Below, one piece after another: positions 10,126-46,569 of a DNA stretch of 64,000 nucleotides. Every line of letters begins with the position of its first letter. The first letter of the stretch is position 1. Origin of the DNA: Escherichia coli. Its GTDB lineage: Bacteria > Pseudomonadota > Gammaproteobacteria > Enterobacterales > Enterobacteriaceae. The position numbers and the translations under genes were made by a program. The DNA is taken from NCBI RefSeq assembly GCF_003334815.1, contig NZ_QOWO01000006.1. The stretch is one strand, 5' to 3'. Below the pieces are notes generated by a model. The model saw only the letters and a list, made by a program, of their open reading frames with translations. It was not told where the DNA came from and did not search any database.

Positions 10126-10203
10126 TGTAGGCCGGATAAGACGCTGTAGGCCGGATAAGACGCGTCAGCGTCGCATCCGGCAATCAGCATCCGGCAATCA
10201 CCA
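10126..10203. repeat. REP (repetitive extragenic palindrome) cluster between ypfG and tktB
   Basis: Two GTAGGCCGGATAAGACGC units plus inverted GCGTCGCATCCGGCA units. Confidence 0.8.
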
Positions 10204-22342: not shown

Positions 22343-23519
22343 ATTGCAGACCGCGCTCTTTCAGGCGTTCGATACCCTGAATCTGCAACGGGTAAAAACA
22401 TTTAGCGTTCCACCGGTGACGCTTTGCGGTCCGGGCTCGGTGAGCAGTTGCGGACAGCAAGCGCAAACGCGTGGGCTGAAACATCTGTTCGTGATGGCAG
22501 ACAGCTTTTTGCATCAGGCAGGGATGACCGCCGGGCTGACGCGTAGCCTGACCGTTAAAGGTATCGCCATGACGCTCTGGCCATGTCCGGTGGGCGAACC
22601 GTGCATTACCGACGTGTGTGCAGCCGTGGCGCAGTTGCGTGAGTCAGGCTGTGATGGGGTGATCGCGTTTGGCGGCGGCTCGGTGCTGGATGCGGCGAAA
22701 GCCGTGACGTTGCTGGTGACGAACCCGGATAGCACGCTGGCAGAGATGTCAGAAACCAGCGTTCTGCAACCGCGCTTGCCGCTGATTGCCATTCCAACTA
22801 CCGCAGGAACCGGCTCTGAAACCACCAATGTAACGGTGATTATCGACGCGGTGAGCGGGCGCAAGCAGGTGTTAGCCCATGCCTCGCTGATGCCGGATGT
22901 GGCGATCCTCGACGCCGCATTGACCGAAGGTGTGCCGTCGCATGTCACGGCGATGACCGGCATTGATGCGTTAACCCATGCCATTGAAGCATACAGCGCC
23001 CTGAACGCTACACCGTTTACCGACAGTCTGGCGATTGGTGCCATTGCGATGATTGGCAAATCGCTGCCGAAAGCGGTGGGCTACGGTCACGACCTTGCCG
23101 CGCGCGAGAGCATGTTGCTGGCTTCATGTATGGCGGGAATGGCGTTTTCCAGTGCGGGTCTTGGGTTGTGCCACGCGATGGCGCATCAGCCGGGCGCGGC
23201 GCTGCATATTCCGCACGGTCTCGCGAACGCCATGTTGCTGCCAACGGTGATGGAATTTAACCGGATGGTTTGTCGTGAACGCTTTAGTCAGATTGGTCGG
23301 GCACTGCGAACTAAAAAATCCGACGATCGTGACGCTATTAACGCGGTAAGTGAGCTGATTGCGGAAGTTGGGATTGGTAAACGACTGGGCGATGTTGGTG
23401 CGACATCTGCGCATTACGGCGCATGGGCGCAGGCCGCGCTGGAAGATATTTGTCTGCGCAGTAACCCGCGTACCGCCAGCCTGGAGCAGATTGTCGGCCT
23501 GTACGCAGCGGCGCAATAA
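22332..23519 (+). CDS. eutG: EutG iron-containing alcohol dehydrogenase (395 aa)
   Basis: Track ORF trimmed to MQNELQTALFQAFDTLNLQ; 11-nt overlap with eutJ. Confidence 0.92.
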   Translation: MQNELQTALFQAFDTLNLQRVKTFSVPPVTLCGPGSVSSCGQQAQTRGLKHLFVMADSFLHQAGMTAGLTRSLTVKGIAMTLWPCPVGEPCITDVCAAVAQLRESGCDGVIAFGGGSVLDAAKAVTLLVTNPDSTLAEMSETSVLQPRLPLIAIPTTAGTGSETTNVTVIIDAVSGRKQVLAHASLMPDVAILDAALTEGVPSHVTAMTGIDALTHAIEAYSALNATPFTDSLAIGAIAMIGKSLPKAVGYGHDLAARESMLLASCMAGMAFSSAGLGLCHAMAHQPGAALHIPHGLANAMLLPTVMEFNRMVCRERFSQIGRALRTKKSDDRDAINAVSELIAEVGIGKRLGDVGATSAHYGAWAQAALEDICLRSNPRTASLEQIVGLYAAAQ

Positions 23520-23521
23520 AT

Positions 23522-23705
<184 letters not shown>

Positions 23706-33776: not shown

Positions 33777-33836
33777 CGGCACTTTTTGGTGAATTTGCAC
33801 TCCAAGCAACGTTATTGAATAACCAAAGGAAGTGAC

Positions 33837-34423: not shown

Positions 34424-35407
<984 letters not shown>

Positions 35408-35430
35408 GCGTTTCTGATTCATTGATTAAA

Positions 35431-35460
35431 GGCCAGGCAGTAACATTACTGACTGGCCTC
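35431..35460 (+). terminator. yfeX-proximal terminator hairpin, first copy of a duplicated hairpin (no T-run)
   Basis: 28-nt near-perfect hairpin GGCCAGGCAGTAAC/ATTACTGACTGGCC 24 bp after the yfeX stop; a second copy at 35613-35640 carries the TTTTT tract. Confidence 0.5.
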
Positions 35461-35489
35461 AGATTGTTGACCAAGTGCGCGTTGTACAC

Positions 35490-35605
35490 GCCGGATGCGG
35501 CGTGAACGCCTTATCCGGCCTACGAAATCGTGCTAATTCAATATATTGTGGGCTCCACGTAGGCCTGATAAGCGTAGCGCATCAGGCAGTTTTGCGTTTG
35601 TCAGC
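35490..35605. repeat. BIME (REP - linker - inverted REP) between yfeX and yfeW
   Basis: GCCGGATGCGGCGTGAACGCCTTATCCGGCCTAC ... GTAGGCCTGATAAGCGTAGCGCATCAGGC. Confidence 0.85.
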
Positions 35606-35646
35606 ACTCTCAGACCAGCCAGTAACATTACTGACTGGCCTTTTTA

Positions 35647-36951
35647 TTACTTCTGCTTTAACGCCGCATACACCTGATCAACTACCCAACCATAAGTTGC
35701 AATCGGCAACTGACCGCTTTCGAACATATTGGGATTCTTTTGCGGATCGGCAACCGGCGAATGTGGCTTGTTGCTTAACATCACAATCGTCATATGATTC
35801 ACCGGATCGATAACGGTCACCGTTCCGGTCCAGCCAGTGTGACCGTAGGTTTGCGGGCTTGCCAGCGTGCCAAACGTCGGCGTCATGGTGGCATTACCAT
35901 TCACGCGCCAGCCGAGGCCAAAAGTGGCATCTTCCTTAGAGCTGGTGGTGAACATCTTCACCGTTTCCGCATTGAACAGCTGCACATCACCATAGCCCCC
36001 GCCGTTCAGCATCGTTTGCATTAACACCGCAATATCGCCGGTATTGGAAAACAAACCTGCGTGCCCGGAAACGCCGCCCATCGAATAAAAGGCTTTTTCA
36101 TCGTGCACCTGACCCCAGAGAGTGGAGGTGCGGATATTCGGGAAATGGATCACGCCATCGCGGGTATTGCCGTTCAATTCCGTGGCGGCAATTTGTTGCG
36201 GTTTAAAGCCTTTCAGCAGCGGGTTAAATACCGTATGTGTCAGGCCGAGCGGGCGATAAATCGACTCTTCAACATAGCGGTCAAGCGGCTGACCGGTAAC
36301 CGACTCGACGATAAATCCAAGCAGCATATAATCGACATCGCTGTAGATATGTTTGCTGCCGGGCTGATATTCCAGCGGCGTGCGCTTGATCATCTCCAGC
36401 GTCTGGCCTTTATCCTGGGAATATAACGCGCCCGCGACCGCTTTATTCGGGTATTGCGGATCTGCCGGGAAACCGCCGCTGTGATGCAGCAGGTCAGAAA
36501 TCCGCAGGGTGTTTTTGCCTTTAATGGTGTCATTTGGACTATCGGCAAACCCCGGAATATATTTCGCAATCCGATCGTCAGGATGCAGTTTGCCTTCGCT
36601 CATCAGCTTTTGCAGGGCGAAGTTCGTGGCGTACATTTTGGTGTTTGAGGCCAGGTCATACAGCGTCCCGGTGGTGGCTTTGACAGGCTGTTCCATCAAC
36701 ACGCTGCCATCGTACTTTTTCGCCGCTCCCCAGGCTTTGCGATACACAATCTGATTATCTTTAATGATCAGCAGGTTTACGCTGGGATAACCGACATCAA
36801 CTTGCTGGCTAATCCAGCGATCCATCTGGTTAAGCCGTTCGACGTTAAACCCTGCTTTCTCTGGCGAGCTTTCTGTCAGAACAGGGTATTTTGCGGCGCT
36901 GACGCTACAACTAACAGCCAGCAGAGAAAGATAGAGCATTGTCCGTTTCAT
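35647..36951 (-). CDS. yfeW: Penicillin-binding protein 4B (class C beta-lactamase-fold, 434 aa)
   Basis: Track ORF trimmed to MKRTMLYLSLLAVSCSVSA (signal peptide); SxxK active-site motif (ASNTK) present. Confidence 0.9.
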   Translation of the reverse strand: MKRTMLYLSLLAVSCSVSAAKYPVLTESSPEKAGFNVERLNQMDRWISQQVDVGYPSVNLLIIKDNQIVYRKAWGAAKKYDGSVLMEQPVKATTGTLYDLASNTKMYATNFALQKLMSEGKLHPDDRIAKYIPGFADSPNDTIKGKNTLRISDLLHHSGGFPADPQYPNKAVAGALYSQDKGQTLEMIKRTPLEYQPGSKHIYSDVDYMLLGFIVESVTGQPLDRYVEESIYRPLGLTHTVFNPLLKGFKPQQIAATELNGNTRDGVIHFPNIRTSTLWGQVHDEKAFYSMGGVSGHAGLFSNTGDIAVLMQTMLNGGGYGDVQLFNAETVKMFTTSSKEDATFGLGWRVNGNATMTPTFGTLASPQTYGHTGWTGTVTVIDPVNHMTIVMLSNKPHSPVADPQKNPNMFESGQLPIATYGWVVDQVYAALKQK

Positions 36952-46381: not shown

Positions 46382-46398
46382 GGATTAATAGCATCGGA

Positions 46399-46520
<122 letters not shown>

Positions 46521-46569
46521 AAACAAAGCGCACTTTTTTAACAGTTGTTGCTGCCGACAAATGCAGTAT

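Follow-up and report, generated by a model that had tools for sequence, protein, structure and literature searches.

In the K-12 form of Escherichia coli, the spacer between the convergent genes yfeX and yfeW carries a 28-nt terminator palindrome twice, with one complete BIME-1 element lying between the two copies. Judged by its sequence, this palindrome is a two-way terminator which is common to both genes and not a feature of yfeX alone. Together, hairpin and BIME constitute a 182-bp unit, which occurs in 0, 1, 2 or 7 copies across Escherichia genomes. The explanation as a whole, combining a shared terminator, an old insertion of BIME-1 and the repeat-mediated loss and gain of the resulting unit, is regarded as likely, with a probability of roughly 0.75.

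Structure of the yfeX-yfeW spacer

All positions refer to the window, i.e., the whole 64-kb stretch of DNA that was analysed (Table 1). They are converted to MG1655 coordinates by subtraction from 2585053, which agrees with the RefSeq annotation of yfeW and yfeX. The two convergent stop codons of the K-12 form are separated by 239 bp. Since yfeW converges on yfeX, the hairpins are located between two stop codons and are relevant to both genes. The yfeX-proximal copy (H1) starts at the 24th base past the yfeX stop and is directly followed by TCAGATTGTTGA, which leaves no T-run there. The yfeW-proximal copy (H2) differs from it by two mismatches at positions 2 and 7 (26/28 identical) and is followed by TTTTT, one further base and the minus-strand stop codon of yfeW, which thus lies 6 nt from H2. 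The gap between the hairpins amounts to 154 bp, with a start-to-start spacing of 182 bp. Accordingly, the arrangement described by the sequence-only reading, a 28-nt hairpin without a T-run 24 bp past the yfeX stop, a second copy with two mismatches about 155 bp on and followed by TTTTT, and a BIME between both, was recovered in every part, with the intervening element being a full-length BIME-1 of 154 bp.

Table 1. Features of the yfeX-yfeW spacer and its flanking genes in the window
Feature	Position	Strand	Basis and remarks
yfeX CDS, porphyrinogen peroxidase	34508-35407	+	ORF list; RefSeq MG1655 2549646-2550545; stop TAA 35405-35407
AAA run 5' of H1	35428-35430		Read on the minus strand, a short U-run UUUAAUCAAU after H1 in yfeW-sense RNA
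47-nt imperfect inverted repeat	35428-35643 (arms 35428-35474 and 35597-35643)		Repeat search; 81% complementary
H1, yfeX-proximal 28-nt terminator palindrome copy, GGCCAGGCAGTAACATTACTGACTGGCC	35431-35458		Without U-run in the yfeX sense
BIME-1, full-length, 154 bp (EcoCyc REP176)	35459-35612		REP matches, linker, alignment to second BIME-1
Left outer motif of BIME-1	35459-35489		Alignment to second BIME-1 of the window
Y REP	35490-35523		REP consensus match
Long linker with conserved AATTCAATATATTG (35535-35548)	35524-35558		Linker match
Inverted Z1 REP	35559-35587		REP consensus match
Right outer motif of BIME-1	35588-35612		Alignment to second BIME-1 of the window
H2, yfeW-proximal 28-nt palindrome copy, GACCAGCCAGTAACATTACTGACTGGCC	35613-35640		Repeat search, folding
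In-vitro Rho-binding region, yfeX-sense RNA	35629-35743	+	MG1655 2549310-2549424, minus strand; supplement of preprint 10.64898/2026.03.23.713779
T-run TTTTT, makes H2 terminator-like for yfeX-sense transcription	35641-35645	+	Sequence
yfeW (pbp4B) CDS, convergent with yfeX	35647-36951	-	ORF list; MG1655 2548102-2549406; stop 35647-35649

The repeat search extended the similarity of H1 and H2 to 30 nt with 93% identity. The loop AACATT is not palindromic and shows the same orientation in all hairpin copies seen, so that H1 and H2 are direct repeats. A degenerate pattern of the 28-nt hairpin found two sites in the 64-kb window, H1 and H2, compared to 0 expected from 100 shuffles. This expectation and the presence of the structure in approximately 1,410 complete genomes dismiss a chance or artefactual origin of the pair. 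Likewise, the hairpin is not a member of a dispersed repeat family, as it is found at this locus only, once or twice per genome.

BIME-1, also known as the RIP element, is a REP doublet with an IHF-binding long linker and corresponds to a REPIN in the terminology of Bertels and Rainey. The published architecture comprises a Y REP, an inverted Z1 REP and a conserved long linker (PMC3333891), and all three were identified between the hairpins. The name REP176 and its coordinates are given in the supplement of preprint 10.64898/2026.03.23.713779. A second BIME-1 of the window (46397-46543, minus strand) is 88% identical to the one between yfeX and yfeW over 147 nt, and the alignment spans around 25 nt beyond each REP, stopping just short of H1 and H2. 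As both outer motifs are shared with this second element, the DNA between the hairpins represents one complete BIME-1 and nothing else. Rfam yielded only sub-threshold matches of the REP type for the element, namely naRNA4 and ES036. The 47-nt inverted repeat which encloses the whole structure results from the palindromic nature of the hairpin copies together with the inverted outer motifs of BIME-1. An origin by inverted duplication or fold-back, at which this repeat might hint, was therefore discarded, because the outer motifs account for the extension and the loops are direct. The idea that the hairpin is an excision footprint of a REPIN, taken from PMC3337134, was dismissed as well, since the hairpin is unlike REP and also occurs in Citrobacter, where A and T runs flank it.

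Occupied and empty alleles in E. coli

A 551-bp query across the spacer matched all complete E. coli genomes (5,426/5,426), from which 40 evenly spaced rows were listed. The full K-12 form was obtained for 1,401 genomes, and an E-value-gated query for the junctions of BIME and hairpin matched 1,410 of the 5,426 (approximately 26%). About 74% feature no BIME and exactly one hairpin. Based on the 40 evenly spaced rows, it is estimated that approximately 48% of the genomes give a match of 369 bp, short of the full query by exactly 182 bp, and that approximately 23% possess one hairpin and have lost most of yfeW, e.g., BL21 and Ecol_656. All but one of these rows (39 of 40) belonged to the one-unit or zero-unit class, the other being a 34-nt REP match on a plasmid. 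The empty junction was matched in one piece in at least 3,294 of the 5,426 complete genomes by an E-value-gated junction query. A query with the hairpin alone gave 6,837 places in 5,420 of the 5,426 genomes; the median genome has one copy, and around 26% have two. The BIME-less form reads AAA-hairpin-TTTTT, as illustrated by the spacer of EDL933, ...GATTAAA-GGCCAGGCAGTAACATTACTGACTGGCC-TTTTTATTAC..., in which a single hairpin occurs without BIME. H1 of K-12 is identical to the single hairpin of both EDL933 and BL21.

A BIME-less allele with two hairpins was not seen by the spacer and junction queries in the 5,426 complete E. coli genomes, which ties the duplication of the hairpin to the BIME. 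The sequence-only reading had proposed exactly this comparison with BIME-less genomes, which turned out to carry a single hairpin with its T-run and to be 182 bp shorter. Its statement that the length of the yfeX 3' UTR is altered thus holds, with the BIME-bearing form being 182 nt longer than the single-hairpin form. Its interpretation as a yfeX terminator split or duplicated by insertion of a BIME is supported by the comparison of filled and empty alleles, but it needs to be refined insofar as the hairpin appears to act in both directions and to be shared by yfeX and yfeW.

Outgroups and age of the insertion

Orthologous loci were gathered by a search with the YfeX protein. Three Citrobacter species have one hairpin, flanked by A and T runs, and no BIME; after it comes what remains of the 3' end of yfeW. 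This hairpin, AAAGGCCAG[T/C]CAGTGAT[G/A]TCACTGACTGGCCTTTTT, shares 23 of 28 positions with H1 and likewise with H2, and that of Citrobacter sp. R56, which has a stem of 16 pairs, is recognised as a canonical terminator in a scan. The gene yfeW itself is lost in the single-hairpin Citrobacter species. A single two-way hairpin probably represents the ancestral state. No demonstrably pre-insertion allele was found among the Escherichia loci compared, so that the polarity rests on the yfeW-deficient Citrobacter outgroup.

The same insertion of BIME-1, with the junctions hairpin/TCAGATTG and CTYTCA/hairpin, is present in four other Escherichia species. One unit is found between yfeX and yfeW in E. 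whittamii, two in Escherichia sp. E1V33 and seven in Escherichia sp. MOD1-EC7003, and in E. albertii, hairpin and BIME are followed by a deletion into yfeW. Compared to K-12, the units differ at 4-8 positions per 182 bp in E1V33 and MOD1-EC7003, at 9 in E. whittamii and at 11 in E. albertii (2-6%), and the nucleotide identities of yfeX to K-12 are approximately 95.7% for E1V33 and MOD1-EC7003, 93.7% for E. whittamii and 92.0% for E. albertii. As the divergence of the units scales with that of yfeX, the insertion looks old, genus-wide and vertically inherited. Consequently, the BIME-less E. coli alleles are probably not never-occupied sites, as the simplest form of the sequence-only reading would have it; they are most likely precise secondary losses from an insertion that four other species share.

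The strains WP8-S17 (0 units) and LR-72 (1 unit) exemplify such a pair of alleles. They differ at only 1 of 1,150 positions of the left flank and 9 of 1,100 of the right flank, have identical protein accessions for YfeY, YfeX and PBP4B, and the spacer of WP8-S17 equals that of LR-72 minus exactly one unit. Furthermore, ACATTA and ACACAA, two variants of the hairpin loop, are each found with as well as without the BIME. Near-identical flanks and loop variants agree with recurrent loss, and homologous allelic replacement could yield some of these patterns. Excision by a transposase-type activity is an unlikely source of the empty alleles, because two adjacent hairpins would be expected to remain and none were seen by the spacer and junction queries in E. 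coli.

Copy-number variation of the 182-bp unit

Tandem Repeats Finder reported 7.2 copies of 182 bp with 96% identity for MOD1-EC7003 and 2.2 copies of 181 bp for E1V33, both being draft short-read assemblies, for which copy numbers of seven and two are possibly inexact. The units of MOD1-EC7003 differ from one another by 2-9 substitutions, which argues against a trivial assembly collapse as the source of the array. Every allele, whatever its copy number, begins with AAA-hairpin and ends with hairpin-TTTTT. An internal BIME-hairpin-BIME junction, which would indicate two or more units, did not occur among the 5,426 complete E. coli genomes at E <= 1e-22, and a metagenome scan gave no matches to the internal junction. 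The head-to-tail arrangement of the unit and its differing copy number among genomes are those of a variable-number tandem repeat, and we infer from the allele series that the unit is exactly revertible to the compact terminator. The rule of a single BIME-1 per locus holds for K-12 and is broken in the draft assemblies of E1V33 and MOD1-EC7003, and the amplification of this BIME-1 is ascribed to its position between repeats of host sequence. In addition, another BIME-1 forms a 130-bp x 3 array between yfeZ and yfeY of MOD1-EC7003, and the unit of this array takes in the region of the yfeZ stop.

Predicted RNA structures and transcription termination

Both H1 and H2 are GC-rich stem-loops just past a stop codon, as is typical of intrinsic terminators. 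Their fold energies were calculated as -18.6 kcal/mol (yfeX sense) and -19.7 kcal/mol (yfeW sense) for H1 and as -11.3 and -20.8 kcal/mol, respectively, for H2, with hairpin z-scores from -3.5 to -5.4 over both senses. In the yfeX sense, the stem of H2 is weakened by A-C and C-A mismatches and followed by UUUUUAUUA; in the yfeW sense, it forms a perfect 13-bp stem including two G-U pairs and has no U-run. H1 in the yfeW sense is followed only by UUUAAU. The yfeX-sense RNA of K-12 therefore presents H1 without a U-run, two REP hairpins and H2 with its U-run in this order, and the yfeW-sense RNA presents H2 without a U-run, the REPs and H1 with UUUAAU. A scan for consensus terminators called none in K-12 or EDL933, due to the internal mismatch in the hairpin, and called the Citrobacter orthologue. 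In the minimum free energy fold of the whole 3' UTR, H1 is predicted to pair with H2 around the BIME and to form a super-hairpin of about 215 nt, with energies of -98.8 and -105.6 kcal/mol and z-scores of -6.1 and -7.9.

Published data on RNA ends and Rho were compared with these predictions. The curated Term-seq table of Adams et al. (2021) lists no curated RNA 3' end in the yfeX-yfeW spacer, and the TERMITe supplements hold no entries for yfeX or yfeW. On the yfeX strand (minus in MG1655), a bicyclomycin-sensitive Rho region was reported with its peak at 2549195, around 210 nt past H2 (Adams et al., 2021). Its coverage upstream and downstream was 114/26 without and 89/77 with the drug (p = 2.7e-7), values which derive from coarse windows of 800 nt at low coverage. 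Moreover, an in-vitro Rho-binding region starts inside H2 and continues antisense into yfeW (Table 1), the site being located 43 nt from REP176 (supplement of preprint 10.64898/2026.03.23.713779). Taken together, the Rho region and the binding site past H2 point to a leaky intrinsic termination of yfeX at H2, with Rho acting as a backup just downstream, which fits the reported Rho-dependent attenuation at REPs.

The BIME-less alleles and Citrobacter combine the features expected of a bidirectional terminator, i.e., a symmetric hairpin with A-run and T-run between convergent genes, and in the BIME-less allele of E. coli, the stronger hairpin of the H1 type directly precedes the U-run. Compared to this form, the K-12 form is predicted to feature longer 3' UTRs of both genes and weaker intrinsic termination. 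It is further predicted to provide extra protection of 3' ends and to cause more yfeX read-through antisense to yfeW, the much less expressed of the two genes. Expression of yfeX is approximately 18-fold above that of yfeW (DESeq2 base means of 13,794 and 772; supplement of preprint 10.64898/2026.03.23.713779).

Origin of the duplication

According to the proposed course of events, the convergent genes yfeX and yfeW would originally have shared one palindromic two-way terminator, AAA-hairpin-TTTTT, which a full-length BIME-1 would have entered in the ancestor of the genus Escherichia, with the hairpin becoming a direct repeat on either side. The resulting hairpin-BIME-hairpin structure would constitute a repeat unit of 182 bp. 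By recombination or by slippage in replication from one hairpin copy to another, this unit could then be lost precisely, which would bring back the compact terminator, as in approximately 74% of E. coli, and could likewise be amplified to two or seven units in other Escherichia species. Transcripts of K-12 would contain a stable hairpin without U-run first, then the REP hairpins and finally the second hairpin with its U-run. In the yfeX sense, this second hairpin is weakened, so that intrinsic termination is probably leaky and Rho would complete termination just downstream.

How the second hairpin came into being is a separate matter. A one-step origin, in which the duplication was made by the insertion event, is a tentative proposal with somewhat less than even odds. 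Like a target-site duplication, the repeat abuts both ends of the element and is single at the empty site. It does not have the short, fixed length typical of a transposase, since its 28-30 bp correspond to the length of the palindrome. The duplication might be a direct footprint of BIME-1/REPIN integration, with breaks at both feet of the extruded hairpin or cruciform and a fill-in that copies the palindrome; put so specifically, the proposal is rather doubtful. Neither a later tandem duplication of hairpin plus BIME nor a template-switch copy accounts for the alleles seen. Breaks at the feet of the hairpin are the most economical reading. To our knowledge, a target duplication of 28-30 bp lies outside the range of known transposases. 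Y1 transposases of the IS200/IS605 type, which are relatives of the REP-associated RAYT, make no target duplication. The mechanism of REP/BIME insertion in vivo is described in the literature as not established.

Other insertions were consulted as comparators. Three other Escherichia species carry an independent BIME-1 insertion between yfeZ and yfeY, 1.7 kb away, at a site that is empty in K-12; its flanking repeat measures at most 5 bp (TAACG). No flanking repeat was detectable at the BIME-1 between cysM and yfeS. This locus was unusable as a second test of filled and empty sites, as the absence of the element is tied to a larger indel of yfeS. At the remaining REP loci of the window (about 10.1, 23.5 and 45.4 kb), no stretch of non-REP sequence is repeated on the two sides. 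In strain 98227, IS200C lies right after the T-run of the hairpin with a duplication of 0 bp. An IS1 in the 3' end of yfeW shows the usual duplication of 9 bp. According to the comparators at yfeZ-yfeY, cysM-yfeS, the other REP loci and IS200C, a duplication of palindrome length is no general property of the elements involved.

These comparators are also the main argument for an origin in two steps, in which BIME-1 would have inserted beside the hairpin while duplicating little or nothing of the target and the second hairpin would have been added by a later local duplication or gene conversion, perhaps being selected for restoring a hairpin next to the T-run. Other BIME-1 insertions with flanking repeats of at most 5 bp or none point in this direction, as do the absence of a duplication with Y1-type elements, including the IS200C at this very terminator, and the 130-bp x 3 array of MOD1-EC7003, which demonstrates that segments containing a BIME can be duplicated in tandem along with flanking DNA. 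However, a simple tandem duplication of hairpin and BIME would end in a BIME, yet all alleles end with hairpin-TTTTT; intermediates of the form hairpin-BIME-TTTTT or AAA-BIME-hairpin were not seen among these alleles; and a copy made by fold-back or template switching would be inverted, whereas the loops are direct. This course of events is therefore considered unlikely.

Two further scenarios dispense with a duplication by insertion or with its age. If each convergent gene originally had its own terminator and the BIME landed between them, the single-hairpin alleles, including those of Citrobacter, would be deletions. The hairpin-BIME-hairpin structure of every non-coli Escherichia lineage in which both flanks are kept is in line with this, and the single-hairpin Citrobacter species, having lost yfeW, could have lost a second hairpin too. 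Such a history is quite improbable in view of the lack of a two-hairpin BIME-less allele among the matches obtained and the single-hairpin junction matched in one piece in at least 3,294 genomes, and H1 and H2 resemble each other (26/28) more closely than the Citrobacter hairpin (23/28), with the BIME filling the space between them exactly and leaving no spare spacer. A recent insertion in the K-12 lineage, by which BIME-less E. coli would retain a never-occupied ancestral state, appears suggested by the roughly 74% of E. coli genomes without the BIME and by the identity of K-12 H1 to the single hairpin of EDL933. It is contradicted by identical junctions in four other Escherichia species with a divergence scaling with species distance, by zero-unit and one-unit alleles interleaved on near-identical flank haplotypes and by the loops ACATTA and ACACAA, each occurring in occupied as well as empty alleles, and is thus highly improbable. 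The old insertion into a shared terminator, with later losses and gains, is hence retained as the preferred reading.

Relation to known repeat systems

The element between yfeX and yfeW resembles other BIME-1 in being extragenic, located between convergent genes and polymorphic in presence and absence among strains, but differs from them by the bracketing 28-30-bp direct repeat of a host terminator palindrome. Bachellier and co-workers are said to have noted 'excisions' of whole BIME-1 among natural isolates in 1997. BIME-1 'occur as single copies' and BIME-2 occur in tandem (PMC3333891); unlike such single copies, the element described here is repeated, together with the host hairpin, two and seven times in tandem in two Escherichia draft genomes. 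In this respect, it is comparable to BIME-2 arrays and tandem REPIN clusters, which feature a head-to-tail amplification of REP-containing units with a strain-variable copy number. A tandem REP array with a period of 100 bp at 23518-23705 of the window is an example of such amplification. Whereas the units of BIME-2 and REPIN clusters consist of REPs and their own linkers, the repeat boundary is here formed by a non-REP host hairpin, so that ordinary homology among the hairpins can account for both gain and loss of units, and no enzyme specific to REPs needs to be invoked.

Bidirectional intrinsic terminators between convergent genes were reportedly described by Ju and colleagues in 2019, and a number of 306 is cited for them in the REP preprint of 2026. 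The BIME-less allele conforms to this type by its symmetric hairpin, which is GC-rich and lies between an A-run and a T-run, and by stop codons 58 bp apart. In contrast, the module of K-12 is split into an AAA-hairpin and a hairpin-TTTTT half which are 154 bp apart, the activity of both being predicted.

The usual length of target-site duplications is 2-14 bp. Like those of IS elements and MITEs, the repeat is direct, adjoins both ends of an inserted repeat element and is single at the empty site, but unlike them, it comprises 28-30 bp and coincides with a palindrome. The precise loss and gain of whole units bounded by repeats of 28-30 bp corresponds to deletion and expansion between short direct repeats, such as slippage and variable-number tandem repeats. 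Such deletion and expansion in E. coli, by RecA-independent slippage or unequal exchange, is described in general terms in PMC5426353. Different from an ordinary minisatellite, the 182-bp unit carries a terminator hairpin and a REP doublet. As the unit contains these regulatory elements, any change of its copy number affects the 3' UTRs of both genes together.

Significance

All parts of the locus are of known kinds: BIME-1 or REPIN, a two-way terminator, repeat-mediated deletion and expansion, and the presence/absence polymorphism of BIME-1. The combination of a host terminator palindrome duplicated around BIME-1 with a variable-number unit of 182 bp appears to be new, and a full-text search of a limited literature collection returned no paper in which yfeX and yfeW are both named. 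This locus leaves the basic view of REPs unchanged. What it offers is a clean comparison of filled and empty sites, in which the host sequence duplicated around BIME-1 has exactly the length of the palindrome. Moreover, it represents a natural allelic series for the effect of BIMEs on convergent genes, ranging from a compact two-way terminator to one split by one BIME and further to forms with two and seven units. Being reversible by simple repeat-mediated deletion, the arrangement could work as a switch of 3' UTR structure that is slow and heritable. If the duplication is indeed a footprint of integration, it would provide a concrete clue to the mechanism of REP insertion in vivo. Palindromes of terminators would then be structural targets of insertion, which would explain the accumulation of REPs at the 3' ends of genes and between convergent genes.

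Repeats and Hairpins Around yfeX

The BIME-1 between yfeX and yfeW is not the only such element in this neighborhood, as a BIME-1 also occupies the yfeZ–yfeY spacer in three Escherichia species other than E. coli, while being absent from K-12; its flanking repeat does not exceed 5 bp (TAACG), and it is an insertion independent of the one at yfeX–yfeW. In MOD1-EC7003, this element is expanded to a tandem array of three 130-bp units, with the region of the yfeZ stop codon lying inside the unit.

The window also contains a second BIME-1, and REP sequences at 10.1 and 23.5 kb (see table). The K-12 form of the cysM–yfeS region was found in 1,382 of the 5,426 complete E. coli genomes, which nearly equals the number carrying the yfeX BIME, and in genomes without this form yfeS is missing and yfeK adjoins cysM. 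The near-equal counts at both BIME-1 loci, together with the absence of yfeS elsewhere, thus suggest that one long K-12-type haplotype spans 35–46 kb of the window.

The yfeX leader contains a strong hairpin of its own. Abundant RNA 3' ends were reported at MG1655 2550560/61 (Adams et al., 2021), which corresponds to about 34492–34493 in the window; the yfeX start follows 15–16 nt downstream. The hairpin is presumably the yfeY terminator, situated inside the yfeX leader.

Features at yfeX and at related or additional repeat loci (L-numbers, loci from other genomes in their own coordinates)
Feature	Position	Genome	Remarks
REP	10126–10200	window	two internal micro-duplications, both exact (19 nt x 2; 14 nt x 2)
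BIME-2-like tandem	23518–23705	window	typical; 88-nt repeat, 100-bp period, 97% identity
yfeZ–yfeY BIME-1, empty site	33777–33836	window	
yfeZ–yfeY BIME-1, filled	L007/L008 about 1625–1765; L009 1357–1746		
Leader hairpin	34466–34497	window	AATGCCACGGATTGCGTGGCATT, then ATTATTTT; immediately upstream of yfeX ribosome-binding site
Second BIME-1	46397–46543	window	between cysM and yfeS
yfeW remnant, 87 bp	L002 1047–1133; L004 1047–1133	BL21(DE3); Ecol_656	annotated as partial pseudogene
IS200C	L087 about 315–1005	E. coli 98227	directly 3' of terminator T-run
IS1B	L088 about 535–1285	E. coli F5656C1	last yfeW codons, just beyond second hairpin copy (H2) and T-run

Gene Loss and Insertion Sequences at the yfeX–yfeW Terminator

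In about one quarter of the E. coli genomes, as estimated from evenly spaced rows of the genome search, yfeW/pbp4B is almost wholly gone, and in the two deleted loci listed the single terminator hairpin now lies between convergent yfeX and murP. In E. albertii NBRC 107761, an internal part of yfeW directly abuts the right end of BIME-1 (L010, about 1110–1130), with H2 and the yfeW 3' end deleted; this decay is an independent event.

Insertion sequences have also entered at or beside the terminator. In strain 98227 the junctions read GGCCTTTTT, IS200C, ATTACTGC, without a target duplication. As IS200C lies directly after the T-run, the hairpin and T-run at which BIME-1 resides have also been the target of an element with a Y1 transposase. 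The IS1B of strain F5656C1 is flanked by a 9-bp target duplication (ACTTCTGCT).

In a small number of E. coli genomes the hairpin matches at three places, and one match is on a plasmid. These cases are probably segmental duplications, and a junction of two tandem units was found in none of the E. coli genomes searched.

The Spacer Downstream of yfeX in Other Genomes

Two public assemblies, the L006/L042 pair, have probable contamination or labelling problems: a "Citrobacter sp." MAG contig is E. coli-like at the yfeX locus, its yfeX being 97.7% identical to K-12 vs. 85–86% for the Citrobacter species compared, and the yfeX found in a "Chryseobacterium sp." assembly is of Enterobacteriaceae type (91% protein identity). 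SCPM-O-B-8794, labelled E. coli, is a divergent Escherichia (yfeX 94.7% identical) with a degenerate BIME-1 (75% identity) directly 3' of yfeX (L005, 3400–3560), where both the hairpin copies and yfeW are absent. This BIME-1 may represent the yfeX–yfeW insertion after decay, or else may have been inserted independently.

Several Citrobacter and Enterobacter species show differing REP/BIME arrangements 3' of yfeX (L012, L013, L017, L026, and L035, just after 3397), among them an array with a period of roughly 110 bp in C. amalonaticus (L017). These arrangements are independent colonizations, and the spacer after yfeX appears to be a place where REPs have landed repeatedly.
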